This document shows positions 27,280 to 43,563 of a stretch of 64,000 nucleotides of DNA, one piece after another. The notes below the pieces were generated by a model, which worked only from the letters and a program-made list of their open reading frames with translations, searched no databases and was not told the origin of the DNA. The DNA is from Patescibacteria group bacterium. GTDB lineage: Bacteria; Patescibacteriota; Microgenomatia; UBA12405. The position numbers and the translations under genes are program-made. The stretch is taken from the NCBI GenBank assembly GCA_013387215.1, contig WARW01000001.1, positions 12,735-76,734 of the forward strand, given 5' to 3'. Every line of letters starts with the position of its first letter. The stretch's first letter is position 1.

Positions 27280-27295
27280 TCTTGTTTAAAATTAT

Positions 27296-27440: not shown

Positions 27441-28235
27441 CTAAATGAATTCCTGATTCTGCAAACTTCCTAAAAGTTTATATACTGCCTCCTCGTACAG
27501 GGGATGATCATCACCCAACGTCTTCATTCTGGTAATAAATTCTTGGGTTTCTTCCTCAGTCGGAATTTCACATTTTGTCACATTCCTGTCATATGGAAAA
27601 TAAATTCTATTGGCTGAATCTTCGGTAAGCTTCAAAGCATTTTCCGGGCAGCCCTCAAACTCGACAAGAAATTGTCCCAAAAGTTTGGTTGTTCCTTCAA
27701 CAGGGCCGGGTATTAAAGACTTAATGTAATACAATTCCTGTTGTCCTTCTTGGGCGTTTTTAATATACCCGTAAGCATTTGTGCCTCTGGCGCTCAAAGT
27801 TACTTTAATAATTGCATTGTCTTTTGGTAATTTGACCTCTTCAATCTCTAAACTTTCCTCTGGAGCGCTTCTTTGTTTGTCTACGTCTAAAAGTATTTTT
27901 TCGATTAATTCCTTATACTGGGGATTATATTCTTCCATTGTTTCCATATGGCTCACAAATTCGCCGATTTCCTTTTTTGTTGGTTGGCTGTAAAACTTTA
28001 CTCTGGAATCTCCGGGGAAATAAACTCGATTTGTGCTGCCTGGTGCCAGCTTTAAAGCTAGCTCTGGGCACTCAATAAACTCGTGTAAAAACTGTCCTAA
28101 AAGCATGGTTTCTTGGGTAATCGAACCCTCACGTACTTGGTCAATAAAATAAGCTTCTTTCCGATCCCTCATTGTTAAAACCACCAATGTTCTTTGCTTT
28201 GGTATAAACGGATTTTTCCTTACCATTTTATCCAT
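27441..28235 (-). CDS. Hypothetical protein composed of two tandem homologous domains
   Basis: Internal duplication: FLHEFIECPELALKLAPGSTNRVYFPGDSRVKFY...KKEIGEFVSHMETMEEYNPQYKELIEKIL is echoed by FLVEFEGCPENALKLTEDSANRIYFPYDRNVTKC...EEETQEFITRMKTLGDDHPLYEEAVYKLL. Confidence 0.45.
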   Translation of the reverse strand: MDKMVRKNPFIPKQRTLVVLTMRDRKEAYFIDQVREGSITQETMLLGQFLHEFIECPELALKLAPGSTNRVYFPGDSRVKFYSQPTKKEIGEFVSHMETMEEYNPQYKELIEKILLDVDKQRSAPEESLEIEEVKLPKDNAIIKVTLSARGTNAYGYIKNAQEGQQELYYIKSLIPGPVEGTTKLLGQFLVEFEGCPENALKLTEDSANRIYFPYDRNVTKCEIPTEEETQEFITRMKTLGDDHPLYEEAVYKLLGSLQNQEFI

Positions 28236-28406: not shown

Positions 28407-28895
28407 TTAAATTAATGACAAAGTTTTATTTTCGCAGTCAATAAGCCAGGCTCTGCCTTTATCAATCATATGCGATTGTAAACCGATGCCGAATTCTTCT
28501 TTGGAAAAATAATAGGGAAATCCTTCCGCAAGTCCGCAATGAGTCACCAACACCAGCACTTCAGTTTCGTTGGCATATTCTCTGACCAGTTTCAGTGTAC
28601 TTGGGAAATCATCTTCAGGGCTTAAGTCCGCCAATAAAGTACTTTTCTCTTCAATATCACATCCGGTAAATAGACCGATAATTAAAGCAGTTTCTTTGGT
28701 TCGGATAGACGGTGAGCAGAGTATCGTTATTTTTTTATCCTGTTCGAGCGCTAATATTTTATCTGCCAGTGCCATAACTTTAAGTTTTCCATCATTGCTC
28801 AAATGTCCATTTTCTTGAAAATCACCATGTCTCGCAACTATTAAATACTTCATAACCCATTCTCCTTTCAGTTTTGCCTCTCTTTTTATTGTCAA
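28407..28895 (-). CDS. Histidine phosphatase family protein (phosphoglycerate-mutase-like / SixA-like)
   Basis: RHG catalytic motif LIVARHGDF. SPSIRTKETA. The likely true start is MKYLIV (about 28853). Confidence 0.6.
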   Translation of the reverse strand: MTIKREAKLKGEWVMKYLIVARHGDFQENGHLSNDGKLKVMALADKILALEQDKKITILCSPSIRTKETALIIGLFTGCDIEEKSTLLADLSPEDDFPSTLKLVREYANETEVLVLVTHCGLAEGFPYYFSKEEFGIGLQSHMIDKGRAWLIDCENKTLSLI

Positions 28896-29041: not shown

Positions 29042-30853
29042 ATGTCAAGAAACATTGAGAGTCCAAGTTTCGTACAAATCAAAGAAGCTTTGGCTTGTCC
29101 GCATATTCAAAAAACCGCTCGCCCTATTGGTGTCGACTTGTTTTATTCGGATCTGGAAAGTGCTAAGGAAAGAAGACAGCTTTTGGAAAAAATGAGCCAT
29201 CTTTTTGATCAGATTCCAGACCTAAACATGGATGTCGATACCGCTTTAAAAAATAATTTAATTAGCTCTGAAAACTTATCTAATGTTTATCAGGATTTAT
29301 CTGATTTCATCAGCTCAGATTCCAATCATTCTCGTTTAGCTTTATATCTGCCTTTCCAAATTATTCCCAATTTAAATCCAGACAATTCAAAAAATATAAC
29401 CGAATCTCAGGTTAAATTTGCTAACGTCTATAAAAATGCTTGGATGCAATTGTTGTTTGAAAGTGATATTCGGGCGGATTTTTTAAACGGAGACACATTA
29501 GAACCAGGCCTAGGCGAACCAGCTCGAGTCAGAAAAGCAGCCCATTTAATACCGGAAATTTTAAAAAAGGGAATTATTGATAAAGAAGATATTGACTTAA
29601 TATTAGAAATAAATAAATCAGATGATGAATTATGCCATTCAATTAACGAAGGAGTAATTGCCTACGAGAAATTAAATAAATCAGAAAAATCTGAGGAAAC
29701 TTCAGAAATTTTTGATTTAGATAATTTAAAAAAAGAACTGGCTCTTATTGATAAAAATTACGGACCAAATTCAGAAAATATTTCCAAATTAAGTCTAAAG
29801 GAAAAATACGATTCGCCCAATCTGCTTGATTCAAAAATCAGCCAAGAAAGAGCTGCTTGGATAAGAAGAACTAAATATGGAGAAACTTTAAATAAATATG
29901 CCCAAAAAATTCATAATTTTAATACCATTGATTCTTTATTAGAAGCAGATGAACCAGTCTATAAAATACTTGGCTTAAAAGCGATTTTTAATCAAAATCA
30001 ACCGACTGATATCTTTGATAAATTAATTGAGGAACAGTGGTTGACTGGTAATAATCAAATCAAGGAAGCAATAATTACCGGCCTAAGTTATTGGCAAAAA
30101 AATAATCTAATTTCTTCACATTACCTAGATCGATTCGGAATTAAAATTCCTGATTTATCACAACCGTTTTCAGTTGATTTAGATAAATTAATTTTGTCCG
30201 ACCTTAAAAATATGACAGAGGCTGTAGAAGGAATTAAAAATGAATCAATTCTTTCTGAAAATATTTATCCAACCATATTAGTATTTGGATCAAGAGTCAA
30301 AGGATATTCTGGTCTTGATTCTGATTATGATATCGCTGTCTTTTTTAAACCAAACGCCTTAATTGATAACCGGAATTCAATTCTTCAATCAATCAAAGCG
30401 ATTCCTTCATTAAAAGAAGTAGGGAAGATATGTGAATTTTGGACAACCGAAAATGATGGAAAAATAGGTCTTAGACCAATCTCAGAAAAAGTTTGGGGCA
30501 TGATTGGACCGGAACAAATTCACTTTTTATTTGGAGGTGCTTGGATTGGTGATAAAACCGATATAAATAAAATACAGCAGGATCTTTTGGAAAAATATTG
30601 TGATTTATCAAGATTTGACCATCAAAAAGATTTGGTACGATCTCGCTTGCTGGGTAATTTAGAATACGATATTCTTCAATGCCGTCTTATGCATAAGGGG
30701 TATCGAAAATTTTATCCTGATAAAATTGATCCGAAAATTAAAAGTATAAACGCTATTGATGGAAATAGTGCCTTTTGGGATCCTGGGTTTAGACGAGTGG
30801 CAACGCAACTTTTTTTGAGTAGAGTATTTTTACCTGATTTATCGGGTAAATAA
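29042..30853 (+). CDS. Large protein with a C-terminal Pol-beta-superfamily nucleotidyltransferase domain. The N-terminal ~400 aa are unknown.
   Basis: GS-x9-DxD motif ILVFGSRVKGYSGLDSDYDIAVFF (MNT/KNTase-like). Convergent with the PurA-like operon, with a 15-nt overlap. Confidence 0.55.
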   Translation: MSRNIESPSFVQIKEALACPHIQKTARPIGVDLFYSDLESAKERRQLLEKMSHLFDQIPDLNMDVDTALKNNLISSENLSNVYQDLSDFISSDSNHSRLALYLPFQIIPNLNPDNSKNITESQVKFANVYKNAWMQLLFESDIRADFLNGDTLEPGLGEPARVRKAAHLIPEILKKGIIDKEDIDLILEINKSDDELCHSINEGVIAYEKLNKSEKSEETSEIFDLDNLKKELALIDKNYGPNSENISKLSLKEKYDSPNLLDSKISQERAAWIRRTKYGETLNKYAQKIHNFNTIDSLLEADEPVYKILGLKAIFNQNQPTDIFDKLIEEQWLTGNNQIKEAIITGLSYWQKNNLISSHYLDRFGIKIPDLSQPFSVDLDKLILSDLKNMTEAVEGIKNESILSENIYPTILVFGSRVKGYSGLDSDYDIAVFFKPNALIDNRNSILQSIKAIPSLKEVGKICEFWTTENDGKIGLRPISEKVWGMIGPEQIHFLFGGAWIGDKTDINKIQQDLLEKYCDLSRFDHQKDLVRSRLLGNLEYDILQCRLMHKGYRKFYPDKIDPKIKSINAIDGNSAFWDPGFRRVATQLFLSRVFLPDLSGK

Positions 30854-32290
30854 GTATTCGTATCCTGATCTTATTTTTCTATCTTTTGCTTTTGGTCCCC
30901 ATCCTTCAGCCACTACTGGAATTTGGATCTTTTCTTCAACATAATCCAAAAAAGTATCGACCATTGTTTTGTTATTTTCGGGTTTAAGGGTAGATAAAAT
31001 TGGCTGGCATTGATTAAGTAATTTAGTCAATTGCAGTTGGTGTTTATAATGAGCTTCGTCTTGAGTATTAGGATAAATTTTAATTCCAGTAATGATATCG
31101 TTTTCCATTTCAAAGTAGTCTTCCAAATTAGTATTTTCTCCATTAAATTTATAGCCCTCACAAATCTGCCACTCATTTTTTTGAGATAAAACATCAAGAT
31201 AACTGATCATTAGACCGTCAAAAGATTTCTTTCCGCCGCTAATTTCAACAGCATATTTCATGGCCACAATATCATAATTACCATTTCTAAATTCTCCCAG
31301 CCATTCAGTCCAATTATTGTGAGTTTCCTGAATTGAATCAGTCATTTCTCGATTAAAACTAACCAGTGGGCCGGCTCCATGGCGGGTCATATAGCATCGG
31401 CTAACACCAATTCGGACTATCTCCCCTGAATAATTTTGTTTTTGAAGAGTGCCAAGAATATCTTGAGAAGTTGGATCGATTTGAGTAGTGTGAGGAATAA
31501 AGCCGTACCATGGGTGTAAAAGTGCACCATGAGAAGTTTCGCAGACCACTAAACCTTCTTGTGACAGCATTTCATTTAAATAATTATCGTCAACAATTTT
31601 GAACAAATCGGCAGTGTATTTGAATGATTTGGCAGTTGATCCAACAAAACTTTGATCATAAAGTATTTCCAATTGTTCATATGCTTCTTCCGGCAATTGA
31701 TCTAATCCAAGAATTAGTTTTTGAGCTTGTTGAATTTTATTTTGCCGGATATTTTCTATTTTTTGGCACAAAGTTTCTTCATCATCGCTAAAATCGCCGG
31801 CTCTGATTGTTAGTTGTGGATCTTTTGAATCTTTTATGGCTTCGCCAACCCCCATACCAACTGTTCCTTTCTTGTCTTTACCTCGCATAATTTCGCGAAG
31901 TCGGCTTATAGCCCGGTGAAACGGAGTTATGGAAATACATTCTTTATCGATAGTTATTAAATCGAATGGATTTTTTACTCCCTTTTCTTCAACCTCAATA
32001 GCCTCATTAAAGAGATCAGTCGGGCAGATTACCATGTGTTTTAAGTGAGTTTTAGCGCCGTCAAAAGTACCAGCCCCAAAATGGCTAAACATTTGTTCTC
32101 GCCCATCTTCGGCTGTAATATGGTGTCCGGATTGGCAGCCTCCTGATCGCCAAACAGTATGAGCATTAAGCATTTTAGTAAAAGCTTCAACTGTGTTGCC
32201 TTTGGTTTCTTCGCCAATACCTAAACCAGTAACCACAATGACTTTATTTTTGGGCTTTTCAAAATTAATATTTGAAATTATTTCTTTCAT
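30839..32290 (-). CDS. Adenylosuccinate synthetase (PurA)-family protein, divergent paralog 1
   Basis: PurA-like P-loop GLGIGEETKGN (compare GDEGKGK), GGCQSGHH (compare GGHNAGHT), TVGMGVGEAI (compare TTGRGIGP), RHGAGPL (compare RVGAGPFP). The catalytic Asp is replaced by Glu in the P-loop. Confidence 0.65.
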   Translation of the reverse strand: MKEIISNINFEKPKNKVIVVTGLGIGEETKGNTVEAFTKMLNAHTVWRSGGCQSGHHITAEDGREQMFSHFGAGTFDGAKTHLKHMVICPTDLFNEAIEVEEKGVKNPFDLITIDKECISITPFHRAISRLREIMRGKDKKGTVGMGVGEAIKDSKDPQLTIRAGDFSDDEETLCQKIENIRQNKIQQAQKLILGLDQLPEEAYEQLEILYDQSFVGSTAKSFKYTADLFKIVDDNYLNEMLSQEGLVVCETSHGALLHPWYGFIPHTTQIDPTSQDILGTLQKQNYSGEIVRIGVSRCYMTRHGAGPLVSFNREMTDSIQETHNNWTEWLGEFRNGNYDIVAMKYAVEISGGKKSFDGLMISYLDVLSQKNEWQICEGYKFNGENTNLEDYFEMENDIITGIKIYPNTQDEAHYKHQLQLTKLLNQCQPILSTLKPENNKTMVDTFLDYVEEKIQIPVVAEGWGPKAKDRKIRSGYEYLFTR

Positions 32291-32291
32291 A

Positions 32292-32342
32292 AACCTTTCG
32301 TCCTTTTGGACTCATCAGTATCGATACGCATCGATAGAGGTT
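32292..32342 (-). ncRNA. Type III hammerhead ribozyme motif (copy A), immediately 5' of and overlapping the SD of the PurA-like gene
   Basis: The minus strand reads aaccUC | UAUCGAUgcguAUCGAUA CUGAUGA GUCC-AAAA-GGAC GAAA GGUU u AUG. The conserved CUGAUGA and GAAA cores are present. Stem I hairpin 7 bp, stem II 4 bp, stem III 4-5 bp. Cleavage site is UC. Confidence 0.6.
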
Positions 32343-32404
32343 GAATAGCTAAAAGCCAGTCTTTAAATTAATAAAGATAGCTTTCAGCTATTCTGTAAAG
32401 AGTG

Positions 32405-33556
32405 TTAGAACTTATTCCAATTGATTCCGCTTCCAGGCTGTTCATCCTTTATTGGTTGCTCTACAACAGTAGTTGCATCGTGCCCGATAGGCCAAATGTC
32501 GCGAAGATTGGCGAATTTGTCTCCAGGTTTGGGGATTTTATTATATCCGGGTAACTTCGCCTGGGCGCCAAAAAGCGGTTTTGCAACCTGCAGCCATCCC
32601 CATAGACGATTAACATCGCGTTGTGAAATATGATCATTGGAATTGCCAGCCAGCAAGAATTTGTTTAAACCGTCTTCGGTAGGTTGCAGAGTCTCTGTAA
32701 CATAAATTAGCCCTGCTTGAGCTTCGGCAAGTAGGTCAGGGTCAGGAATTGAAATAACTCTGTCTTCACCTAAATATTGCTGCCACCAGTAGATATTTGA
32801 ATTATTATGGCCAACATTAAGGTAAAACAAATGCCATTTTGATATCAGGCTTTCACAAACCTTTTTCAATGAAACCTTTTCGCTTTGCATGGTATGACCT
32901 AAATATCTTTCAACATCATGTTTGGTTACATACTCCCTGCAATCAGCATCAGCACCTAAGAAGAAATAACCTTTAAGACCGTAGTTTATAATGTCGACTT
33001 CTGTCTGATTATCGACATACCACAAACCAAGTTGATAATCTTCTGTCCAATCATCGCCATCTTTATCGGGAACCAATAACTCAACATGTTCAACGGCGCG
33101 ATTATCAGATTCAAATTCGGCCATTTGGAATGGAGGGTGGTCATCTTTTACATCCTGCAGAACGGCAACGGACAGATCTATTTGATATCTATCCTGTAAT
33201 TCTGACAGCATACAATAGACCTTCCCCATTGCCTTAAGAGCAAGTGCTACTTTTTCGCCCATTGAACCGGTTCCGTCTGTTCCTAAGATAGTCGGTAATT
33301 TAATACCTTTTGCCAATATATATATTTTTTTTCCAGCCTCATCCAACAGCACCATCGCGTTACGAGAAAGACGTTTAACACCAAAAATATTAACATTTTG
33401 ATGTAATTTGCCAGTTTTTTTGAAAACTTCATGACCTTTCTCATGAACAGTTTCGGTAAATCTCACCCCTTTCGTTGTTGCTCTTTCTTCCATTTTTCTA
33501 ACGGTTTCTACATGCTTCACTGCATTAAAAGTAGAGGTATCTTGCTTCCTTGCCAT
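32405..33556 (-). CDS. von Willebrand factor A (vWA) domain protein
   Basis: MIDAS motif ILGTDGTGSMG. Size and position are paralogous to the 38215-39762 vWA protein. Confidence 0.55.
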   Translation of the reverse strand: MARKQDTSTFNAVKHVETVRKMEERATTKGVRFTETVHEKGHEVFKKTGKLHQNVNIFGVKRLSRNAMVLLDEAGKKIYILAKGIKLPTILGTDGTGSMGEKVALALKAMGKVYCMLSELQDRYQIDLSVAVLQDVKDDHPPFQMAEFESDNRAVEHVELLVPDKDGDDWTEDYQLGLWYVDNQTEVDIINYGLKGYFFLGADADCREYVTKHDVERYLGHTMQSEKVSLKKVCESLISKWHLFYLNVGHNNSNIYWWQQYLGEDRVISIPDPDLLAEAQAGLIYVTETLQPTEDGLNKFLLAGNSNDHISQRDVNRLWGWLQVAKPLFGAQAKLPGYNKIPKPGDKFANLRDIWPIGHDATTVVEQPIKDEQPGSGINWNKF

Positions 33557-33587
33557 TTAAATCAACCCTTTCTTTTTTTAATTTTTT

Positions 33588-34553
33588 TTACCTTGGATAC
33601 GTCCGAAATTCATGAAATTGTCTTTTTAACCCTTTTCCATCCCAAGTCGGTTCTTTTGGCCAAATTTCATCAGATAGTTTGTAAAGATCATCAAACTCCT
33701 CCCCAGCAGCTTTAGCATCACCATCCATAATTCTTCGTAAGAAAGAAACATACTTATCGTAAGCATCTTTACTCATAATTTCCGAATCATAAGGCGGATT
33801 TGATTTTTCAGTGCCTCCGGCTGCTTCCCAGGCTATTTTTGCCGCTGCCACAACTTCTCGAATCTTATCGGCATAACTCGGATCTCCCTTAGTATTGGAA
33901 AAATCCAGTATAAATACTCCATGAAGTGCAGTTTCGACAAGTTCATTGTCGGCATTAACCAATCCAACCGTTAAATCAAAACTGTGGACAAAATACAGCA
34001 ACTTCAAAAGTTTTCCAAATATCCATTGGACACTTTTCAAATCAACCCTTTCCGTTGCTGTTATTACCGATAGTGGTGTTAATTGTTTATAAGAATTTAT
34101 ATTCTCGTGGTATCCCAAAAACAAAGCTGTTCTGTCTCCGGCGTCAATTTTTTCAATTAACTTCGGAAACATCGATCCGTAAAATGCTGGAGTTTCGTTT
34201 TTGCTTATCGCTTCCTGATCTAGTTCATGAGCAATTCGTTGAAGCTTTTTGAGCGTTAATGCTTCATTGTTAAGAACATTATTGCGCTCACTGCTGTTAA
34301 CGATTTTCATTAATCCGAATTGACTTGATGGTAATTTTGCTGCATAAACTCTAAATACGCTTGTTTGGGCTATTGGTAATGGATTTGGGTTATCTCCGGA
34401 TTTTAAACCGAAAATTTCATACTGGCCATTCAATCCATCGTAAAAACCCATGCTGATTAAATTAGATTCAGCTGGATTTTCACTTGGAACTAATAAGGCG
34501 ACATTTAACACTAAATCCGTTAGCCATCCTGTTGAAGAATCATTTTTTGGCAT
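33588..34553 (-). CDS. Protein-kinase-like protein (Hanks/APH-like fold) with the shared N-terminal WLTDLVL peptide
   Basis: HSFDL...N catalytic-loop-like segment and ILDFSN (DFG-like). N-terminal MPKNDSSTGWLTDLVLNVALLVPSE. Confidence 0.45.
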   Translation of the reverse strand: MPKNDSSTGWLTDLVLNVALLVPSENPAESNLISMGFYDGLNGQYEIFGLKSGDNPNPLPIAQTSVFRVYAAKLPSSQFGLMKIVNSSERNNVLNNEALTLKKLQRIAHELDQEAISKNETPAFYGSMFPKLIEKIDAGDRTALFLGYHENINSYKQLTPLSVITATERVDLKSVQWIFGKLLKLLYFVHSFDLTVGLVNADNELVETALHGVFILDFSNTKGDPSYADKIREVVAAAKIAWEAAGGTEKSNPPYDSEIMSKDAYDKYVSFLRRIMDGDAKAAGEEFDDLYKLSDEIWPKEPTWDGKGLKRQFHEFRTYPR

Positions 34554-34556
34554 TTT

Positions 34557-34754
34557 TCACACCCCTCTCATTAATTCATTCATAAAATATTTCTTAACGT
34601 TTTTTCGTTCTCTAAAGTATTCATGGATGTAGCTTCTTTCTTTAACTTTAAACTCCTTTCTCACCTGACTGATGTCTGACTCTTCAGAAACAGGTAATAA
34701 TGAAGCAAAACATAAAACTAATCCAGTCAGCCATTCCTCAGGTGTTTTTCTCAT
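34557..34754 (-). CDS. Small protein consisting of the shared N-terminal WLTGLVL peptide plus a basic tail
   Basis: MRKTPEEWLTGLVLCFASLLPVSEE matches the N-termini of the two kinase-like proteins. Confidence 0.4.
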   Translation of the reverse strand: MRKTPEEWLTGLVLCFASLLPVSEESDISQVRKEFKVKERSYIHEYFRERKNVKKYFMNELMRGV

Positions 34755-34851
34755 TCCGATTCACCCTTTCTATTACTAACACTTTATTGTTAAAGAACTT
34801 TTAATAAGATCATGACCGCTTTGACCAAGATCTTACCCAGATATCATCCCA

Positions 34852-34905
34852 AATTCCTTTCGTCCTTTTGGACTCATCAGTATCGATACACATCGACAGA
34901 GGATT
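34852..34905 (-). ncRNA. Type III hammerhead ribozyme motif (copy B)
   Basis: The minus strand reads aauccUC | UGUCGAUguguAUCGAUA CUGAUGA GUCC-AAAA-GGAC GAAA GGAAUU. 47/50 identity to copy A in the core. An a-to-g change in stem I makes a G-U wobble. Confidence 0.55.
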
Positions 34906-34975
34906 GGGGGAGTTTGTTTTTTTTATTGAGTATTGATACTCAAAACAAACTCCGCCCGGGACTATCATTTGATTT

Positions 34976-35476
34976 TTAGATTCTAATCCGTGAATCAGCA
35001 GGCCTGATGCCTTTTTGGTAAACCAATTGCATTAGTACCTTTAGTTGCGGACCAAAATCCTTTTTCAGATCTTCAGGCATAGTATTAAGAAACTGGTAGT
35101 CATCCTTGAAAAGAAAGCTAGATAAACTAGTCAATTCCGGATTTTTTTCAACCAGACTCAAATATGCCTCCCTGGTGGCGGTTGTAAACACTTCTTTGGG
35201 AGCACAGGCACGCAGGGTTAAGATGTGAACAGGTTTCATCGTATTCCAACCAGTCTTATGTTCGGAAAACATGTTGGCATCCATACGTTCTGCATTCTCA
35301 AATAACCAAGTGGCAACTTTGGAAACATCTTCCTCTTGAATTATCCTCAGATAATCCCTCAGGAAATCATTACTTGCGAAAGGAATTGCCTCCAGCGGGT
35401 CGGTCCTCCTTAGACAGTTTTTCCCATGGAATCGATGTACCGAGTTGTAACAGGGCAGCAAGATATGCATATTCAT
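34976..35476 (-). CDS. Hypothetical protein. Overlaps the upstream gene by 107 nt in a different frame, so it may be a frameshifted continuation or start at internal Met 35284.
   Basis: ORF track. Protein-like composition continues on both sides of the overlap. Confidence 0.3.
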   Translation of the reverse strand: MNMHILLPCYNSVHRFHGKNCLRRTDPLEAIPFASNDFLRDYLRIIQEEDVSKVATWLFENAERMDANMFSEHKTGWNTMKPVHILTLRACAPKEVFTTATREAYLSLVEKNPELTSLSSFLFKDDYQFLNTMPEDLKKDFGPQLKVLMQLVYQKGIRPADSRIRI

Positions 35477-36521
35477 ATTGGCCAGCTGTTACTTTCGGAT
35501 ATTCCATAATGGACAAAGCATACCTGGTGATACTACGCTCCATTCTGACATAATCAGCTGAAACATTCACATCAAGCATTTTGAGCATCTGTTCTTTGTT
35601 GGCGGCGCCAATTTGAGCTGGTAGGGCTGAATTTTCCAAAACCTCTTTGATTCTGTTGGCATCCAATGCTAAAGCCCTGGCAATCACGATACCTGTGCCG
35701 GCAAAAACCTTGTTGATCTTATCAATCACACCTTCAGCTCCATCGCGCAATGCGCTTGTATCGGGTGGCTGCTGCATCATACCTGCTGGCATTCCTGCTT
35801 GGCCTCCTGTTGCATAAATAGCAAGAGCCATCATTGCTGTAGGAGCTACTCCTTGCTGGTACGAATTAACCCATGACACAACCTGCTGGTTGTACTCGTA
35901 GAGTGCTGGCCAGAGATTCGTCCTGAGTTTATTGAGCAACGCGTCTTTCTTTCCCTGGGTTACGCTGGCACTGTCGATGTCGAGAGCCTGGAAGATTTCT
36001 GCATAATTACGTTTGGTAACCAGTTTCTGCAGCTTGTAGAAATCTTCTCCGCACGGTTCTTCCTGTTCTTCGGCAAATTTTTCCATCCGGTCCATAATGA
36101 TTTTGGGCAATTCGTAAAGACCGCTTTTGTCTGCCAATGTTGCCCTGATGGCTGCAATAATTTCAGTTATGCCGATTTTCAGCTCTCCACCTATTTTCAG
36201 CATGGCTAAAAATGAGGTATCGTCCGGAACCTGTGGCAGAACGTCCATTGACGGTTGAGCTGCTGCTGTTGCAGTTGCTTCAATTTTCGGTTTTTCCTCC
36301 TCTTTGGGTTTGAATGCTGCCGCAATTTTTTTTGCTACCACAGCACCGCATCCGGCATAAGATTTGATCTCGTCGGCTGACAATAAAACCATGTCCGCTT
36401 CAGTCATTACCCCTTCAGTTTCCAGTTTTGCAATTTGGTCTTCTTTAAGTCCGAGCTCGGTTAGCCTCAGTTTCAATGTTTCTTCCATAACAAAATCTCC
36501 CTTCATCTTTGAAATCACCAC
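35370..36521 (-). CDS. Hypothetical Ala/Gln-rich protein with N-terminal helix-hairpin-helix-like module. First gene of the second transcription unit.
   Basis: LTELGLKEDQIAKLETEGVMTEADMVLLSADEIKSYAGCGAVVAKKI (HhH-like). Local GC is noticeably higher than the surroundings. Confidence 0.4.
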   Translation of the reverse strand: MVISKMKGDFVMEETLKLRLTELGLKEDQIAKLETEGVMTEADMVLLSADEIKSYAGCGAVVAKKIAAAFKPKEEEKPKIEATATAAAQPSMDVLPQVPDDTSFLAMLKIGGELKIGITEIIAAIRATLADKSGLYELPKIIMDRMEKFAEEQEEPCGEDFYKLQKLVTKRNYAEIFQALDIDSASVTQGKKDALLNKLRTNLWPALYEYNQQVVSWVNSYQQGVAPTAMMALAIYATGGQAGMPAGMMQQPPDTSALRDGAEGVIDKINKVFAGTGIVIARALALDANRIKEVLENSALPAQIGAANKEQMLKMLDVNVSADYVRMERSITRYALSIMEYPKVTAGQYEYAYLAALLQLGTSIPWEKLSKEDRPAGGNSFRK

Positions 36522-36805
36522 TATACAGTCATATCCATATTTATGACTAATGGCTTGCTGGACACAAATTTTGTACCCAAAAAGCCACTAGTCATTTATA
36601 TTCAAATGATAGTCTTTGTAAAAATTTTTTTCTTTCACCAGCTTTTGGTGTAAATCAAAAAATCCTTACTTTGTTAAAGTGCAAATTTAGCCTATAGCTT
36701 AGCACAAGGGATTGCTGTAGTCAATCAAAAATTATTGATCATTACCGTAATATTTTTCGTAATCATAAAATATAATCATAAACTTATAATAATTAAAATT
36801 TTTAC

Positions 36806-36860
36806 CAAAAAAAACCTCAATTTAGAAATTAATTAGCATTCGCTAAAAAATTTCACCATT
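36806..36860 (-). terminator. Rho-independent terminator after PurA-like paralog 2
   Basis: The minus strand reads accucaaugg...(inner hairpin uagcgaaugcua)...auugaggu followed by UUUUUUUU. Confidence 0.45.
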
Positions 36861-36866
36861 GAGGTA

Positions 36867-38213
36867 TTAAATATCAATCGAAATCTTTTGATCTCGATCA
36901 GGGCCAACTGAAATTAAACCGATAGGAACGCCTAATTGTCCCTCGATATACTCCAGTAAGCTTCTAGTTTTAGAAGGTAAGTCTAAATAATTTTTGATAT
37001 TTGAAATATCATCTTCCCATCCTGGAAGGGTAGTGTAGACAGGCTGGCAGTTCCAAAGCAATTTCGACATTACTTCATCCTGCTTTTGCAGTTTCACTCC
37101 TACAATCTGATTATTGGGCCCGAAATCAAAGTATTTGTTTAAGGTTTCTTCGCTCTCTTTGCCGATATATCGGTAAGAATTTGCAAATTTGATTTCTTTT
37201 AAACCAGACATTTTGTCCAAGCAGGACACTACCAGTTTGTCGATTCTTTTGTTCACTTGAAGCGAATATCTAAGCAGTACAAAATCTAGCCAGCCTTGTC
37301 TGACAAATCTTTGCCAAGGAGTATAAACGTTATGAGTTTCTTCCAGATTTAAGTTTTCATCTACTGTTGGAAATGGTCCTGCCCCATGTCGGACACTGTA
37401 TGGTCTTAATAATCCTAGTATAACCGCTTCTTTTTCTCCAAGAAGTTCCAATGCATTAGCTATGGATGTCCTAGTCTGGGTGATATTTGGTTTAAAACCA
37501 TAATCGCAATCCAAAATTGTGCCCTGAGCTGCCTCAAAAATATTATTTTGAGTTTGGATTATCTTTTGTATTTCTTCATCACTTAAAATACCCACCCTTT
37601 TGGTAAGTTCCAAATAAATTTTAGCCAATCCTTTTGGTGAGTACATTTCAAACTCTTCTAAAAGTATTTTTGTTTCTTCGTTACTGGCTAGCTGTTCTAT
37701 CTGGTCAAGTTTTAACATCTTTAGTGTTTTTAGCTTGTATTCCAGATCAGGTCTCAACAGATCTTTCGCTCTAATACTAAATGCAGGATTTGTCCTTTCA
37801 TCTATAACCGTTTCTCCAACACCTCTTCCGCAAGTTCCTTTTTTGGTTGTTCTTAGTATTTCTTTTATCTTTCCGCAGATTATTTGGTAGGGGGTAATTA
37901 CTAAAGAGTTTTCTGATATCAATAATTTTTCAAATGGATCAGAAATACCCTTAGTTTCTAGTTTTTCTCCCTCTACCAAAATTCCGATTGGATCAATCAA
38001 AGTAAACTTTGAAATTATAGTTTTTAAACCAACAAAGGTTCCGGATCCGAATTGGGAAAAGGTGTGGTGGATCCCACTCGACACCACATTGTGAGCACAC
38101 TGAGATCCACCGCAATATCTGACCACATTTCCTCCATATTTTGAGGCTAAAAAATCAACCATTGATCCTTTACATTCGTCACCTTTATCTAGGCCCACAG
38201 TTATCCAATCCAT
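36867..38213 (-). CDS. Adenylosuccinate synthetase (PurA)-family protein, paralog 2 (closer to canonical)
   Basis: GLDKGDECKGSMVD (P-loop GDEGKGK), CGGSQCAHNV (GGHNAGHT), TCGRGVGETV (TTGRGIGP), VRHGAGPFPTVDE (RVGAGPFPTE). Confidence 0.7.
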   Translation of the reverse strand: MDWITVGLDKGDECKGSMVDFLASKYGGNVVRYCGGSQCAHNVVSSGIHHTFSQFGSGTFVGLKTIISKFTLIDPIGILVEGEKLETKGISDPFEKLLISENSLVITPYQIICGKIKEILRTTKKGTCGRGVGETVIDERTNPAFSIRAKDLLRPDLEYKLKTLKMLKLDQIEQLASNEETKILLEEFEMYSPKGLAKIYLELTKRVGILSDEEIQKIIQTQNNIFEAAQGTILDCDYGFKPNITQTRTSIANALELLGEKEAVILGLLRPYSVRHGAGPFPTVDENLNLEETHNVYTPWQRFVRQGWLDFVLLRYSLQVNKRIDKLVVSCLDKMSGLKEIKFANSYRYIGKESEETLNKYFDFGPNNQIVGVKLQKQDEVMSKLLWNCQPVYTTLPGWEDDISNIKNYLDLPSKTRSLLEYIEGQLGVPIGLISVGPDRDQKISIDI

Positions 38214-38214
38214 C

Positions 38215-39762
38215 TTAAAGTCTCCTTGTCTTTGACCCTGTTGTCTTGTTTACAGGTTTATTGTCGGGCATTTTCATATCGACTGTAATTTCTGGCACCA
38301 AACTATTGTCCAGTGGCCTTAAAGCAGTTTCGATGTCATTTTGCCGTTCTATGGTTTGATCTCTATCACGCATATCCTTGATGTAGTCTGACAATTCTCG
38401 GCCTCCGTATCTTGCCAAAACTCCGATAATCAAATCAACAATTCCTTTTGGATCTTTCAATCTTAAAACATGATCCTCGGGAATTACCGATGACCATTGC
38501 GCCACGATCACGTCGTCTTGGTAGTTAGCATATTTATCCTTTGTTTCCGTTATTCTTTGTTCTGGATCATAATCAAACTCCAGAATTAGTATATTACTGT
38601 TTTCCCTTGTCTTATAAGCTGGCATTACCTTTTCAAAATGCTGTATTTCACCATTGATTTCAACTTCCACAGTAAACTGTGTTTCTATACTTTCTGATTG
38701 GTGAAAAGCATAGTTTTGAACATACACTTTATAGTGTCCTTTTCTGGCTCTGCCTTTTTCCCATCTGATATTTTCCACAGGTTTTGTTGTTTCCCCGTGC
38801 ACATTCATATCTACATCCAAAAAACCTCCACACGGAGCCTTTTTGTTCTCACTTGGATAGTAAATATGAAAACCAGATGGGGTAATCACATGTAAGTCCA
38901 AGTCATTGGTGTTGTGCCAAATCAGTGAAACCCTAATATCGACTCCCTCATACAAGCCCCCGGCTCTTTCGACTCTCTTTTTGATCTCATTATCAATATC
39001 AGTTTTTCTTTTTTCCCATGTTTTTTGCGGGAAAATAAAGAATACTTCATATTTATCCTGAAGATCAGCAAAAACTTTCTTTGAGTCTAGGTCTTCGGGA
39101 ATATCATCGCCGATTATTCTTTTGACTTCATCTTTCGATACTTTGTCATAAAATCCTTCATCGCCAATGAAAAAAAGATAACCTTTTTCTCCGCGGTCAT
39201 TAGCCTCCAACGTTGAGTGATAAGCATAAAAATAACCCATCAATTCATAGGATTCTTGCCCGGTGCCGCCGCCGCCTTTTTCTGGCCACATGCATGAAAG
39301 CACTTCATCAATTTTGTCGTCATAATAAAATTTGCCGACTTGAATTGGTGCTTTGTCAAACTTAGCGTCGCCCAAACCAGCAAAACTAATCACTGGATTA
39401 AGAACGTAGCCCTTCATATTTATTTGGCCAATGAGCATTGGGACTTTTTTGTCGATTATTTCAATATCCTTTCCGCGTGAATCGGTAAAATCTGAAACCA
39501 CTACGATTGGTGTTACTTTTGCTGCTATGTTACGGATAAAATCCAAACACTGTCGAAATGCATTTTTTGGATCAAGACTAGCATGAACCACTCTTTCTTT
39601 TGTAGCATTTTTACCCACCACATCATATTGATATTCTGTATTCACACTGCTTGTTCCCACGCTTCTTTCGTAAAAAACCATATCAGATGGTCCATCGCCG
39701 TCTCCGCCTCCCATTAAAAATGGTGCCAAAAAAGCACAACGCAGTATTCTTAAAAATTTCAT
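38215..39762 (-). CDS. vWA domain protein with additional C-terminal beta-rich domain (possibly TerD-like, acidic Ca-binding-like motif)
   Basis: MIDAS-variant VVVSDFTDS and LFFIGDEGFYD (vWA beta4 hhhhTDG motif). The C-terminal segment DLDLHVITP...IYYP...GGFLDVDMN...PVENIRW resembles the TerD pattern. Uncertain. Confidence 0.5.
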   Translation of the reverse strand: MKFLRILRCAFLAPFLMGGGDGDGPSDMVFYERSVGTSSVNTEYQYDVVGKNATKERVVHASLDPKNAFRQCLDFIRNIAAKVTPIVVVSDFTDSRGKDIEIIDKKVPMLIGQINMKGYVLNPVISFAGLGDAKFDKAPIQVGKFYYDDKIDEVLSCMWPEKGGGGTGQESYELMGYFYAYHSTLEANDRGEKGYLFFIGDEGFYDKVSKDEVKRIIGDDIPEDLDSKKVFADLQDKYEVFFIFPQKTWEKRKTDIDNEIKKRVERAGGLYEGVDIRVSLIWHNTNDLDLHVITPSGFHIYYPSENKKAPCGGFLDVDMNVHGETTKPVENIRWEKGRARKGHYKVYVQNYAFHQSESIETQFTVEVEINGEIQHFEKVMPAYKTRENSNILILEFDYDPEQRITETKDKYANYQDDVIVAQWSSVIPEDHVLRLKDPKGIVDLIIGVLARYGGRELSDYIKDMRDRDQTIERQNDIETALRPLDNSLVPEITVDMKMPDNKPVNKTTGSKTRRL

Positions 39763-39785
39763 TTTAAAAACCCCTTTCCTTATTC

Positions 39786-40739
39786 TTAAAATTCAAACAC
39801 TTGGAATCCGATATCTCCCCATATTTCTTTCCTCAATTCGTACAGTTTTTTTGCCATATCCCATGCATCCCTAGCCCTTTGTATTGGACTGGAGATTAAA
39901 AAGTTTTCTATAAATCTTTGGAATCGGGGGTCAACAGTATCAGGAAGACTATTATCCTCAAGATTGCCACCCAAAAGGTAAATCATACATTTACCAATGG
40001 AATACATATCTGAAGATTCTTTTGGTTCGTCTTTTTTCTGCACCTCCGGAGCGCTGTAATCATCATTTACTGCCCTAAAACCAGCCTTATTTATTGAAGC
40101 ATAACTCCAATCAATCAAACAGGCATTATGGTCATCTTTATGATTAGTCAGCAAATCCACAGGTTTTATGAGAATGTGTGCCGGTTCAATATTGCAATGA
40201 AATATTCCTTTACTATGGGCATATCCCACTGCTGCTAAAATTCGGCACAGCATCCAGGCGGCATGATAATCGGGAACTCCCGACACATACAATGGATGTT
40301 CTCTGATTTGGTTAAGGTTGAAACCCTCAAACTTCTGAAGAATTATCCCCACCGTCTTTTCTTTTGTTTTAAATCTATCCAGGAATTTTGGCAAATGAAC
40401 TTGGTTTTGGTTTTCTTCTGCAAATAATGCATTTAAGATTTTTATCTCATTATTTGCAAACTTATTGTCGATTTCTTCTTTGATTACTTTAACAATGATG
40501 TTTATGCTTTCGCTTTCATTGGCAAAATAACCCTCATAAATCATCGACAAGTCGCCCTCACCAATAACTTTGTTGACGTGGTATTCACGATTTTTAATCG
40601 TTATTACCCAGTCCAGTTTCTCAGATTCATTTGTTGCATTTGAAGCCCCTAAAACTACACCAGTCAACCAGCTTTGAGGATTTTTTTCATCCATTTTTAT
40701 CACCCTTTCTTTATTAATCAGTTTCGATTTTGATATCAA
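39786..40739 (-). CDS. Hanks-type protein-kinase-like protein, probable pseudokinase
   Basis: Gly-rich loop VIGEGDLSMIYEG, VAIK-like IIVKVIK, catalytic-loop HCNIEPAHILI (HRD Asp replaced by Asn), DFG-like IDWSYA, APE motif YSAPEV. The likely start is M at 40694, giving N-terminus MDEKNPQSWLTGVVLG. Confidence 0.55.
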   Translation of the reverse strand: MISKSKLINKERVIKMDEKNPQSWLTGVVLGASNATNESEKLDWVITIKNREYHVNKVIGEGDLSMIYEGYFANESESINIIVKVIKEEIDNKFANNEIKILNALFAEENQNQVHLPKFLDRFKTKEKTVGIILQKFEGFNLNQIREHPLYVSGVPDYHAAWMLCRILAAVGYAHSKGIFHCNIEPAHILIKPVDLLTNHKDDHNACLIDWSYASINKAGFRAVNDDYSAPEVQKKDEPKESSDMYSIGKCMIYLLGGNLEDNSLPDTVDPRFQRFIENFLISSPIQRARDAWDMAKKLYELRKEIWGDIGFQVFEF

Positions 40740-41319
40740 ACTTTTGCTTTTCTATACACAGCTTTTGAGCAATTTCCACCTGGTCGTAAAAATTCTTTTT
40801 TATTATTTTTTCATTCATCCCAAATTCTTCTACATCCCTTTTAATCCTCCTTTCCAATCTCGTTTTTGAACTCGCCGACATAAAAATATTTACTTTTTGC
40901 TCAAGATTTCCAATAGCTTCGCTGATCATTGAAGCATATAATCCTTCAACGATAATGTATTTTTGGGAAACTATCGCTTTTGTACCTACTCTCATGTTTG
41001 TTCTAATATCGTAATCAGGAAACATAACTTCTTTTTCTACTGAAAGTTTTTTGATATAACCTTTCATTTCTTCAATATGATAAGAGCTTGGCATATCAAA
41101 CGATCGATAACCGCTTATTATTGGCAAAGAATTATCGTTTTTGTTTTTAAAGCAATCATCCATTTCTACAACCACACTCTCATCATTCAAAAACTCTTTA
41201 AGTAATTTAGCTAAATATGTTTTGCCTGAACAACTGCCGCCGCTGATAAAAATAAAATAGGGGAAAACTGAAGCCTCTTTAATTTTGCTTATTAACCAAT
41301 CTACATTCAAATCAATCAC
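40714..41319 (-). CDS. P-loop nucleoside/nucleotide kinase-like protein (uridine kinase / PRK family)
   Basis: Walker A FISGGSCSGKTYLAKLL resembles the uridine kinase motif GIAGGSGSGKTT. Confidence 0.55.
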   Translation of the reverse strand: MIDLNVDWLISKIKEASVFPYFIFISGGSCSGKTYLAKLLKEFLNDESVVVEMDDCFKNKNDNSLPIISGYRSFDMPSSYHIEEMKGYIKKLSVEKEVMFPDYDIRTNMRVGTKAIVSQKYIIVEGLYASMISEAIGNLEQKVNIFMSASSKTRLERRIKRDVEEFGMNEKIIKKNFYDQVEIAQKLCIEKQKFDIKIETD

Positions 41320-41468: not shown

Positions 41469-41939
41469 TTACTGTTTTATTCTCTTGCAAAAATTATCAA
41501 ACTTTTCTTGATAAATTTTTTTGTCTTTTAATTCTTTTGTATTCCACCCTTCAAAAATATCAATCTTTTTATCTACCAATTTTTGCAAGCTAGCCACTGT
41601 TTTCTCTGGTTTAGTATCGCCGGAAGTAATAAAAATTATTACTTTTTTAAATTGTTTTTTAAATTTATCAATATAAGTCCTTACTGCTGGAGTTGAATTC
41701 CAACCCCATACTGGTGTGCCGACAATAACGACATCATAATCTTTTGGATCTTTACAGGTTTTTATTTCAGTTAAATATTCTTTCATTCCATCTCTTCCGC
41801 TCAAAAGCCAGCCTTTTATTCCGCTTCTGTCTTTTAAATCGATTATTTCATCAACATCTGCTTTTAAATTTTCAGCCAAATCCAAAGCTACCCTTTTAGT
41901 ATTTCCTGTTTTTGAATAATAGGTGATTAAGTATTTCAT
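41469..41939 (-). CDS. Flavodoxin
   Basis: Signature MKYLITYYSKTGNTKRVA (T/SxTGxT FMN-phosphate loop). About 156 aa. Confidence 0.8.
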   Translation of the reverse strand: MKYLITYYSKTGNTKRVALDLAENLKADVDEIIDLKDRSGIKGWLLSGRDGMKEYLTEIKTCKDPKDYDVVIVGTPVWGWNSTPAVRTYIDKFKKQFKKVIIFITSGDTKPEKTVASLQKLVDKKIDIFEGWNTKELKDKKIYQEKFDNFCKRIKQ

Positions 41940-42061: not shown

Positions 42062-43120
42062 ATGAATAAATTGTTTGATTTTGAAGCGCATCCGCAAGCT
42101 GCTTGGCTAACCACCAACAGAGATTGTGATGCCAGGTGTCCACATTGTTATGCCCAAGGAACTCATTATGATCCTGCTGATGATATGACTATCGAAACTG
42201 CCAAATCACTTCTGGCTTTACTTGTTAGTATCGACATAAAGCTTGTCACTACTTTAGGAGGAGAGCCGCTGCTTTGGAAGCCGTTGTTGGAATTCAATCG
42301 GATTGCCAAAAGCTTGGGTATTACTACCAAAATGGCAACAAATGCATTTCGTTTTGGTGATAATGAATTTTGGCAAAGATATCTAAAAAATCCTTGTGAT
42401 TCCGTCGGTATCTCTATCAAAGGAGTCGGCGCCGAAATGCTCAAAAGATTGGCTAATGTCACAGATTATGAAAAAGCTGAAAAAGGTATTAAACGAGCCA
42501 TGAATTTTTACAAAAATGGCGTTGGTACGGTTTTTAGCAGCTTGATGACTCTCGACGACCTGTGGAAAATTGCCGAAACTACCCACGAATGGGGAGCAAA
42601 AACATTTTCCATTGGATTTGCCTGTGCCACTTTGGACTCAGAAGGTTGCCCTTCGAAGAAAAACTATATGATTAAGCTCGACAAAATCGAGGAGTTCATC
42701 CAAGTATACGAAAGAATCGATGAGCTTTTTGAAGGCAGTGTTGGTTTTGAACCCCAGCTTCCGTTTTGTTTATTCAGGGAAGATTTTATTGATAAGTTGA
42801 TTGATAAGGGTCAGCTGTCGAATGGTTGTTTTGTCAACAGCCGCGGCGGATTTACCTTCGATAAAGATGGTAATGTTTTGATCTGCAACTCGATTTATCA
42901 TGAACCTATCGGAAGAATCGGCAAAGATTTCACCGATGGCTCCACCCTGATTAATCATCTTAATAGTGAACCTATCAAAGATATTTTCAGGGAGCTTTTG
43001 CGTTATCCGTCCGATGTTTGCCTGGCCTGCCGCTACAACAAATACTGTCGTGGAGGCTGTGTTATCAATTGGACTGCTTTAACGCCAGACATATTACAGC
43101 CTGTTTTAAAGGAGGTGTAA
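42062..43120 (+). CDS. Radical SAM enzyme with C-terminal SPASM domain (peptide-modifying maturase)
   Basis: CxxxCxxC CDARCPHC. SPASM Cys cluster CFVNSRGG...ICNS...CLACRYNKYCRGGC. Confidence 0.85.
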   Translation: MNKLFDFEAHPQAAWLTTNRDCDARCPHCYAQGTHYDPADDMTIETAKSLLALLVSIDIKLVTTLGGEPLLWKPLLEFNRIAKSLGITTKMATNAFRFGDNEFWQRYLKNPCDSVGISIKGVGAEMLKRLANVTDYEKAEKGIKRAMNFYKNGVGTVFSSLMTLDDLWKIAETTHEWGAKTFSIGFACATLDSEGCPSKKNYMIKLDKIEEFIQVYERIDELFEGSVGFEPQLPFCLFREDFIDKLIDKGQLSNGCFVNSRGGFTFDKDGNVLICNSIYHEPIGRIGKDFTDGSTLINHLNSEPIKDIFRELLRYPSDVCLACRYNKYCRGGCVINWTALTPDILQPVLKEV

Positions 43121-43538: not shown

Positions 43539-43563
43539 AAAGAAGATTACAGGGAAACTGCTG

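Follow-up and report, generated by a model that had tools for sequence, protein, structure and literature searches.

What is the function of a locus in which a kinase-like protein, a vWA protein and a relative of adenylosuccinate synthetase (PurA) are encoded together twice in tandem? This question was raised by a stretch of 64,000 nt from a Patescibacteria group bacterium (Microgenomatia; UBA12405; assembly GCA_013387215.1, contig WARW01000001.1, positions 12,735-76,734 of the forward strand), hereafter called the window. The region in focus spans positions 29042-41319 of the window, and its two paralogous triplets lie on the minus strand as module 1 (kin1, mid1 and PurA1) and module 2 (kin2, mid2 and PurA2). 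We propose that they are two diverged copies of a conserved nucleotide amination or salvage module, the core of which would be the vWA protein and a PurA-family ligase and which would usually be led by a pseudokinase; this reading is given a probability of about 0.45. The profile libraries Pfam, NCBIfam, PADLOC-DB v2 and PHROG were searched, AlphaFold2 (AF2) models were compared using Foldseek, and the fetched homologous loci are labeled with L and a number.

Conservation of the modules in bacteria, phages and plasmids

PurA1 and PurA2 shared 30% identity (E 2e-56) in BLAST, and mid1 and mid2 shared 27% identity over 163 aa (E 4e-12). These similarities bear out the original prediction for this DNA, which had described two paralogous triplets of kinase-like, vWA and PurA-like genes. 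No direct BLAST similarity was detected between kin1 and kin2, and kin2 had no Pfam match. Because both proteins matched phrog_3043 and gp270 of phage I3 (1.5e-24 for kin1 and 3.8e-10 for kin2), they appear to be distant paralogues, the kinase-like assignment of kin2 being transitive. The arrangement is far beyond chance: the synteny of module 1 was found in dozens of loci across phyla and that of module 2 in L086-L088.

The mid1 protein had more than 870 relatives (counted as clusters at 90% identity) at ~50% identity, which came from Patescibacteria, Acidobacteriota, Myxococcota, Leptospirales, Planctomycetota, Pseudomonadota and others. When one genome was scanned per species, 157 species were positive for a mid1-type protein. 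An exact look-up of the mid1 protein of the window itself returned nothing. Neighborhoods were then counted over 81 non-redundant loci of mid1-type genes (MID) with fetched flanks. A kin1-type gene was located immediately upstream of MID in 68 of the 81 loci, and a PurA-like gene was found within the fetched flanks in 52. A pyruvate-kinase-like (PKL) gene occurred in 23 loci, where it encoded a minimal protein of 311 aa between MID and the PurA-like gene and kept the R-x-N, D-x-K, K-I-E-S, A-R-D-D-L and S/T motifs of pyruvate kinase. A uridine-kinase-like gene was a further recurrent partner of module 1, as was, in myxobacterial loci, a zinc-ribbon coiled-coil protein. Nudix was also considered as a core partner and set aside, since a strict Nudix-box scan was positive in only 6 of the 81 loci.

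Module 2 was more narrowly distributed. The mid2 protein had 63 relatives, and those with a source name were assigned to Patescibacteria or to an unclassified "bacterium"; the closest named relatives of mid2, as well as of the neighboring protein X (Table 1), belonged to Candidatus Shapirobacteria. The whole arrangement of the window was repeated gene for gene in L086. In L087 and L088, module 2 occurred without module 1 and always with the convergent nucleotidyltransferase gene. Module 2 is thus a Patescibacteria-specific derivative, and the nucleotidyltransferase belongs specifically to it.

Outside bacterial chromosomes, the phage vWA domain was found in ~220 phage records by PHROG and tBLASTn. 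The complete kinase/vWA/PurA-like set was carried by ~200 Mycobacterium phages of cluster C, which are lytic (Bixzunavirus), and in Bixzunavirus I3 its order was kinase (gp270), vWA (gp271), a small protein (gp272) and PurA-like (gp273). The vWA/PurA-like pair was also observed in Rhizobium phages (Cuauhnahuacvirus) and Vibrio phages. The phage pair adjoined genes for a ComF-like PRTase_3, a HAD hydrolase, a Nudix protein and a Met-rich protein, or was located near anaerobic ribonucleotide reductase. In one Rhizobium phage (L095:1929-4265), a HAD hydrolase, a ComF-like PRTase_3 (Pfam 9e-46) and a 190-aa Nudix protein were encoded upstream of the pair. The Rhizobium phage annotation "bifunctional NMN adenylyltransferase/NUDIX" was rejected as a link to nicotinamide adenine dinucleotide (NAD) metabolism; the 190-aa protein is Nudix only, and the NAD link of the phages is therefore weaker than the record suggests. 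Immediately upstream of the pair, Rhizobium and Vibrio phages encoded a Met/Gly-rich protein of ~260 aa with C-terminal runs such as MMMMKMMGG (L095:5774-6568 and L099 ~7190-7990), which is unannotated in the record of Vibrio phage Va1 (L099). Megaplasmids of Rhodococcus and Tsukamurella carried a four-gene operon of J-domain pseudokinase, vWA, PurA-like and Nudix genes (L100:6798-10887 and L101:5259-9404). A scan of viral contigs with the mid1 alignment returned only isolated beta-sandwich domains, and the phage homologues came from the annotated phage collection.

The module is real and of ancient origin, it has spread widely among bacteria, phages and plasmids by transfer, and its invariant core across all three is the vWA/PurA-like pair. 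This synteny across phyla, phages and plasmids also excludes that the triad is a peculiarity of the present genome, an outcome that the original prediction had named as speaking against itself.

NAD-salvage genes were located directly beside the module in 18 of the 81 loci, mostly co-oriented and directly upstream. They encoded a NadE-NMNAT fusion (13 loci), NMNAT, PncA and NAPRT, and the 18 loci came from at least six lineages (Acidobacteria, Clostridia, Patescibacteria, Gammaproteobacteria, Omnitrophota and Holophagales). A further locus, L098, showed the order NrtR-NadE-NMNAT-KIN-MID-PKL-PURA-X-...-PncA-NAPRT. The NAD-linked loci usually carried a PKL gene as well, and often a uridine-kinase-like nucleoside kinase. 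A second Ser/Thr-kinase-like gene, encoding ~680-800 aa, was often observed beside the NAD-linked module (L007:1743-4085, L009:1660-4056, L098:11361-13394 and others).

Residues of the PurA-like enzymes and their partners

The active site of the PurA-like enzymes was read from an alignment of 44 family members, PurA1 of the window and gp273 of phage I3 against Escherichia coli PurA. D13, K16, H41, Q224, T239 and the guanine-specificity residue D333 were kept in the family, in PurA1 and in I3 gp273, and the P-loop GDExKG was retained in PurA1. In PurA, aspartate is bound by T301, R303 and R305, and the phosphate of inosine monophosphate (IMP) by N38, T129 and R143. Throughout the family, as well as in PurA1 and I3 gp273, N38 was replaced by Gln and V273 by His. 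In the 44 family members, T128 was always Ser and T129 mostly Cys, and the aspartate loop read W-Q-G-x-F-R, with W-Q-G at positions 300-302; PurA1 of the window retained T128, and its W-Q pair was shifted one alignment column later. R303 was absent in the 44-member alignment, and PurA1 retained an Arg there in two other alignments. R305 was changed to a hydrophobic residue (mostly Phe, and Val in PurA1), R143 was not conserved, and K331 was replaced by Asn, Cys or His. PurA2 contained Glu for D13 and His for Q224, a signature shared with its orthologues in L086-L088.

Because the residues for GTP and phosphotransfer were kept while the aspartate ligands and some of the IMP-phosphate ligands were replaced, the PurA-like family has likely retained the GTP-dependent activation of an oxo group, and we infer that the amine, and possibly the nucleotide, differ from those of PurA. 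The NCBIfam equivalog model NF002223 scored PurA1 at 217 bits and PurA2 at 125 bits, both below its cut-off of 402. These scores and the replaced aspartate-binding loop agree with the earlier view that the two proteins are not ordinary PurA. Genes for adenylosuccinate lyase (PurB) formed no recurrent neighbor cluster in the fetched loci.

Next to the PurA-like enzymes, the kinase-like proteins showed a family-wide loss of the catalytic Asp. In 64 aligned kin-family members, Lys in the VAIK motif, Glu in alpha-C and Asp at the DFG position were all retained. The catalytic loop was invariably H-G-N-x-x-P-x-H, and the motif search revealed Asn for the HRD Asp in 60 of the 64 bacterial members. 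This loop was HCNIEPAH in kin1 and HGAITPDN in phage I3; phage and plasmid forms contained Ala or Thr at the HRD Asp position, and the actinobacterial plasmid forms also lacked the DFG Asp. The family is therefore predicted to consist of pseudokinases, as had been proposed for the Hanks-type protein of module 1. An N-terminal J-domain with a canonical HPD motif was found in ~25 of the 64 members and was absent from kin1; many of these pseudokinases are presumably coupled to DnaK. In kin2, the loop was TVGLVNADN, and "LDF" was found in place of DFG; its orthologues in L086-L088 showed 40-58% identity. The probable true start of kin1 is the ATG at 40694.

The vWA fold of mid1 is seen only through structure prediction. 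Neither mid1 nor mid2 matched a vWA or TerY model in Pfam, NCBIfam or PADLOC, and a PDB sequence-profile search with the mid1 alignment gave no match. The AF2 model of mid1 (predicted local distance difference test score, pLDDT, 76) matched integrin beta-I and SpaC vWA domains at E ~1e-7 with a probability of 1.00. The alignment of the mid1 family contained an invariant D-x-T-x-S-R-G of the metal ion-dependent adhesion site (MIDAS) type, followed by GGGGTGQESYEL and GDEGFY; D91-x-T93-x-S95 and G200-D201-E202 were invariant. The MIDAS was DGTGS in mid2 and DVTGS or DFSGS in phage forms. A beta-sandwich resembling YfaP/DUF2135 was inserted in mid1 between the vWA domain and a C-terminal helical domain, and this insert was absent from mid2 and from the phage and plasmid forms.

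The vWA proteins of the module-1 type shared an N-terminus. In mid1, M17 (39714) opens the conserved N-terminus MGGG and is the probable true start. The motif MG.G.(W/F/Y)....Y was found at the N-terminus in bacteria, in three phage groups and in actinobacterial plasmids (mid1, L089:5869-6891, L095:7001-7924, L099:8001-8888, L100:7869-8855 and L101:6366-7352), and this segment of mid1 was disordered in the AF2 model (pLDDT ~30). The mid2-type proteins were without the motif, and their C-terminal end was a conserved D-W-x-x-(F/L).

Gene map, accessory genes and surroundings

Open reading frame (ORF) listing and translation confirmed all ORFs at the coordinates given in Table 1. On the minus strand, the order is P-loop kinase, kin1, mid1, PurA1, spacer, X, small ORF, kin2, mid2 and PurA2. 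The anatomy described earlier largely stood, including the uridine-kinase-like P-loop gene at the head of module 1 and the convergent Pol-beta nucleotidyltransferase, which were confirmed by their Pfam matches; what it missed were the NAD-salvage link, the phage and plasmid copies, X as a component and the specificity of the nucleotidyltransferase for module 2.

Table 1. Positions in the window, strands and supporting matches of the genes and RNA-level or DNA-level features of the region in focus
Feature	Position	Strand	Evidence or remark
Uridine-kinase/PRK-family P-loop nucleoside kinase, 201 aa, first gene of module 1	40714-41319	-	Pfam PRK 3.5e-13
kin1, Hanks-fold pseudokinase (predicted)	39786-40739	-	Pfam Pkinase 1e-15
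mid1, vWA protein (predicted fold)	38215-39762	-	AF2 and Foldseek; phrog_2971 1e-40
PurA1, divergent adenylosuccinate-synthetase-family GTP-dependent ligase (predicted)	36867-38213	-	Pfam Adenylsucc_synt 1e-73
Intrinsic-terminator-like hairpin and U-run	36807-36865	-	Directly after the PurA1 stop codon
Inverted repeat with 40-nt arms, upstream of X	36529-36609	not assigned	Free energy (dG) -33.9, z -7.2
X ("HhH383"), 383 aa	35370-36521	-	Conserved neighbor, weak (HhH)2-like N-terminus
Small conserved ORF between X and module 2	34976-35476	-	Homologues in L086, L087 and L021
kin2, highly diverged kinase-fold protein, presumed pseudokinase	33588-34553	-	phrog_3043 1e-6; phage I3 gp270 3.8e-10
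mid2, vWA-only paralogue	32405-33556	-	E 4e-12 to mid1; phrog_2971 3e-12
PurA2, second, more diverged PurA-family ligase (predicted)	30839-32290	-	Pfam Adenylsucc_synt 6e-47
Pol-beta-superfamily nucleotidyltransferase, convergent with PurA2	29042-30853	+	Pfam Polbeta 3.7e-7

The spacer between PurA1 and X was 345 nt long. Directly 3' of the PurA1 stop codon, a hairpin (36814-36865; dG -22 kcal/mol, z -5.65) was followed by the U-run, and we infer that it serves as a terminator. The consensus terminator scan did not list this hairpin, the inner-stem loop and few G-C pairs of which lie outside the rule of the scan. In L086, a syntenic metagenomic locus, the terminator hairpin recurred with compensatory changes in its stem. 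The core arms ATGACTAGTGGCTT/AAGCCATTAGTCAT of the inverted repeat were also unchanged in L086, where their spacer differed by a 6-nt insertion. The repeat could be an operator or a hairpin of the 5' untranslated region; Rfam returned only tRNAs on the entire window, and thus no known riboswitch explains this conserved repeat. The folding z-scores and the recurrence in L086 support the earlier claim that the modules are separated by a terminator of their own and an inverted repeat.

The nucleoside kinase of module 1 also matched the NCBIfam uridine kinase model (1e-22, below its cut-off), and its orthologues were located directly upstream of the kin gene in L008, L020, L026, L036, L055, L056, L078 and L086. 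X is a recurrent component of the module system. It had at least 168 relatives at ~50% identity and adjoined KIN-MID-(PKL)-PURA in L026, L082, L086, L087 and L096-L098; the X-bearing loci spanned several phyla and included one genome labeled Nanoarchaeia. Searches of Pfam, NCBIfam and PADLOC with X gave no match. In its AF2 model (pLDDT 81.5), residues 1-58 resembled the N-terminal (HhH)2 domain of RAD51 (probability 0.96, but E 2.4), which lends weak support to the earlier label of an HhH protein. The label does not extend to the remainder, a conserved all-alpha body with an MPPGMMQPP loop, for which no significant full-length fold match was obtained. The probable start of X is at 36488 or 36506. 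The small ORF beside it showed 54%, 37% and 30% identity to its homologues in L086, L087 and L021, respectively, and matched nothing in Pfam, NCBIfam or PHROG. As listed, this ORF shares 107 nt with X, and its true start is therefore probably downstream of the listed ATG.

The nucleotidyltransferase of module 2 comprised a Pol-beta core at residues 405-455 and a helical N-terminal extension of 400 aa, and it matched an MntA-like NCBIfam model at 1.8e-7, below the cut-off. Its orthologues in L086, L087 and L088 (39-46% identity) occupied the same convergent, overlapping position. The 3' ends of the PurA2 and nucleotidyltransferase genes overlapped by 15-18 nt in four genomes (window 30839-30853, L086:12642-12659, L087:12638-12655 and L088:12792-12809), which suggests coupled or mutually interfering expression. 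Beside the nucleotidyltransferase gene, a small histidine phosphatase was encoded (28407-28895, minus strand; SixA-like by weak matches), which was not found at this position in L086-L088.

Further along the window, a 777-aa AAA_13 ATPase (22381-24714, minus strand) matched PADLOC PDC-S06 at E 1e-233 and was located where the GC content is low, at 27-29% (22-26 kb). Four ORFs without a family match (25579-28235) were found between this gene and the nucleotidyltransferase gene. Just upstream of the uridine-kinase-like gene, a flavodoxin (41469-41939, minus strand) and a divergent radical SAM/SPASM-like protein (42062-43120, plus strand) were encoded. The latter was rejected as a viperin, because its viperin match covered the generic core only and models of the NirJ/SPASM type scored higher. 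A large serine recombinase ORF (3403-5319, plus strand) overlapped an opposite-strand tRNA gene (5146-5229) and adjoined another (5845-5918), an arrangement that possibly marks an integrated element. A second tRNA cluster (43455-44367) was located 2 kb upstream of the module.

Candidate functions and known systems

The amination or salvage module that we favor would work as follows. The nucleoside kinase would make a nucleoside monophosphate, and the PurA-like enzyme would use GTP to phosphorylate an oxo group in the ring of a purine-type nucleotide, the step that PurA performs on IMP. The activated carbon would then be passed to an amine other than aspartate, which is proposed because a Trp/Gln/Phe pocket replaces the aspartate ligands. 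This could be a less acidic amine, or it could be ammonia, in which case an adenine nucleotide would form without PurB. Where a PKL partner is present, it would regenerate the nucleoside triphosphate from phosphoenolpyruvate. The pseudokinase, binding nucleotide without catalysis, and the vWA protein would serve as regulatory or scaffold subunits, with the J-domain forms coupled to DnaK. The module would maintain or convert pools of adenine- and NAD-related nucleotides, both in streamlined bacteria and in cells infected by phages. Module 2 would be a derivative specific to Patescibacteria, in which catalytic residues are altered and transcription is separate from that of module 1; its nucleotidyltransferase would probably nucleotidylate the product of the module or a partner protein. 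The original prediction had proposed a modified nucleotide, either as an anti-phage effector or as a nucleoside-like metabolite; the metabolite part remains the best reading, and the anti-phage part was not borne out.

Several points weigh against this amination or salvage reading. The chemistry ascribed to the PurA-like enzymes is deduced from residue changes only, and the regulatory role of the pseudokinase/vWA pair is a guess. The residues E13 and H224 of PurA2 may signify a different chemistry or a lost activity. A tblastn search of the 64-kb window for NadE-NMNAT, NMNAT, NAPRT and PncA found no NAD gene, and a PKL gene was likewise absent; thus, the NAD link rests on the orthologues, and in about three quarters of the loci an NAD gene was absent within 8 kb. 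For the pseudokinase/vWA pair, extreme conservation and the invariant N-terminal MG.G.(W/F/Y) suggest a role more specific than scaffolding. Carriage by phages and plasmids also fits a role in conflict, and the candidate defence gene PDC-S06 lies 4 kb away.

An unlikely explanation, although the best placed of the alternatives and one that overlaps the favored reading, is that the module restores nucleotide pools for mobile elements and is selected for an advantage in host-phage conflict, as a counter-defence. Nudix or the kinase would feed a nucleoside monophosphate, and the PurA-like enzyme would rebuild adenine nucleotides, for example from the inosine nucleotides left by deaminating defences. 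Alternatively, NAD would be re-synthesized after immune depletion of NAD or ATP. In bacteria, the copies of the module would have this homeostatic function as well. The ~200 lytic mycobacteriophages, the Rhizobium and Vibrio phages and the megaplasmids that carry the module argue for this, as do the adjacency to NAD salvage and the Nudix gene next to the module in plasmids, the Rhizobium phage and some of the genome loci. In the NARP literature, NAD reconstitution is an established phage counter-defence, which also counts in its favor. NARP1, NARP2 and NARP3 resemble the module as mobile nucleotide salvage genes, and bacterial module loci contain NMNAT, NAPRT, PncA, PnuC and a NadR-like kinase. 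However, Adps, Namat, Nampt and NadR-like/PnuC are not in the module core, and PurA-like, vWA or kinase genes find no mention in the papers on NARP1-3. The bacterial copies, moreover, are located in chromosomal, housekeeping-like operons, and their conservation is above that of typical conflict genes.

A second phage precedent is the PurZ pathway (PurZ, MazZ and DatZ), in which a phage PurA homologue together with nucleotide-hydrolysing and kinase helpers redirects the purine pool; PurZ and the PurA-like proteins of the module both belong to phrog_1211. According to the Z-genome literature and general knowledge, PurZ still uses aspartate and needs host PurB. In contrast, the module has lost the aspartate site, and neither the window nor the examined related loci contained datZ, mazZ or dpoZ. 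The PurZ pathway includes nothing equivalent to the vWA and pseudokinase partners, and the module is mainly chromosomal in bacteria.

A bolder proposal, which we consider decidedly improbable, is that the PurA-like protein is a new kind of GTP-dependent ligase, which would join C6 of a purine nucleotide to a non-aspartate amine under the control of a J-domain pseudokinase and DnaK, would be tied to NAD salvage and would have been put to use by phages and plasmids. With ammonia as the amine, the enzyme would be an "IMP aminase" that leads to adenine nucleotides independently of aspartate and PurB; more radically, the amine would be the invariant N-terminal glycine of the dedicated vWA partner, and a protein-nucleotide adduct would form.

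Little credence is given to an anti-phage defence or signaling system, proposed by analogy, in which the kinase/vWA pair would sense infection and the PurA-like enzyme and nucleotidyltransferase would make a toxic or signaling nucleotide. Its points are the combination of a vWA protein with a kinase-fold protein, which recalls TerY-P, generic PADLOC matches of kin1 to the defence-associated kinases MkoA, mad6 and PD-T4-6, the candidate defence ATPase PDC-S06, weak PDC-S09/MntA-like matches of the nucleotidyltransferase, and AbiEii near L098. However, no PADLOC-DB v2 model matched mid1, mid2, PurA1, PurA2, X or kin2, the kinase is without its catalytic Asp family-wide, and no PP2C gene accompanies it. 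The neighbors are NAD-salvage and housekeeping genes and not defence islands, ~50% identity across phyla is atypical for defence genes, and lytic phages themselves encode the triad. The anti-phage effector of the original prediction is disfavored on these grounds.

The analogy to TerY-P, which had also been drawn there, fails as membership. The TerY-P triad (TerY vWA, PP2C and Ser/Thr kinase) reportedly emerged from comparative genomic work on Ter systems and was afterwards reported to be an anti-phage system. The module is similar in that a vWA protein with an intact MIDAS stands beside a Hanks-fold protein. In contrast to TerY-P, no PP2C match was found among the ORFs of 29042-41319, and PP2C-family genes within ~8 kb in L001 and L004 were outside the operon. 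The module kinase is predicted to be catalytically dead (HGN loop), and the vWA protein was recognized by no Pfam vWA, TerY or PADLOC model. Furthermore, the module is without TerD/TerZ genes, its third partner is a PurA-family ligase, and it occurs in NAD-salvage clusters and lytic phages. In Rhizobium phage RHph_TM2_3B, the genes close to the module encode a HAD hydrolase and a ComF-like PRTase_3; both families are linked to the Ter-associated genes for a "nucleoside-like metabolite".

It is very improbable that the PurA-like enzyme acts on proteins, joining C6 of a purine nucleotide to a protein amine such as the N-terminal glycine of the vWA protein after Met removal, with the pseudokinase and DnaK controlling the modified protein. 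The invariance of the vWA/PurA-like pair in bacteria, phages and plasmids would fit, as would the vWA N-terminus that is conserved from bacteria to phages and modeled as disordered, and the exchange of the carboxylate-binding Arg/Thr of the aspartate pocket for Trp/Gln/Phe. The proposal is, however, purely inferential, mid2 is without the N-terminal motif, and the conserved N-terminus could equally be a docking peptide. To our knowledge, no PurA-family enzyme modifies proteins.

Finally, that these are ordinary housekeeping adenylosuccinate synthetases (EC 6.3.4.4), converting IMP to adenylosuccinate beside unrelated genes, is hardly tenable: Patescibacteria depend on purine salvage, the Pfam Adenylsucc_synt (PF00709) matches are strong, and PurA1 keeps GDExKG, D13, K16, H41, Q224 and the GTP-specificity residue D333, but both proteins fall far short of the NCBIfam cut-off, the aspartate and IMP-phosphate ligands are replaced family-wide (T300, T301 and R305 by Trp, Gln and Phe or Val; N38, T129 and R143 changed; V273 by His), the gene is always vWA-linked in a vWA/pseudokinase synteny kept across phyla, phages and plasmids, and no recurrent PurB partner was seen nearby.

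The full-text literature searched, which covered few subscription journals, contained no description of the triad, and neither did the NARP and Z-genome papers. In agreement with the original prediction, an association of PurA-like, vWA and kinase genes was absent from this literature and from the defence-system models. The module is directly testable because cultured carriers exist, namely Mycobacterium smegmatis with Bixzunavirus, Rhodococcus, Nannocystis and Leptospira biflexa. If the amination or salvage reading is true, the module would represent a widespread, undescribed branch of nucleotide metabolism that is shared by many bacterial phyla, the streamlined Patescibacteria among them, and is also carried by actinobacterial megaplasmids and hundreds of sequenced mycobacteriophages. 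The PurA family, which so far comprises only the PurA and PurZ chemistries, would gain a new reaction, and the highly conserved vWA/pseudokinase pair, for which Pfam has no model, would be assigned a function. The module could, furthermore, reveal an unrecognized accessory arm of NAD and adenine-nucleotide homeostasis, which is central to research on the conflict between phages and bacteria.

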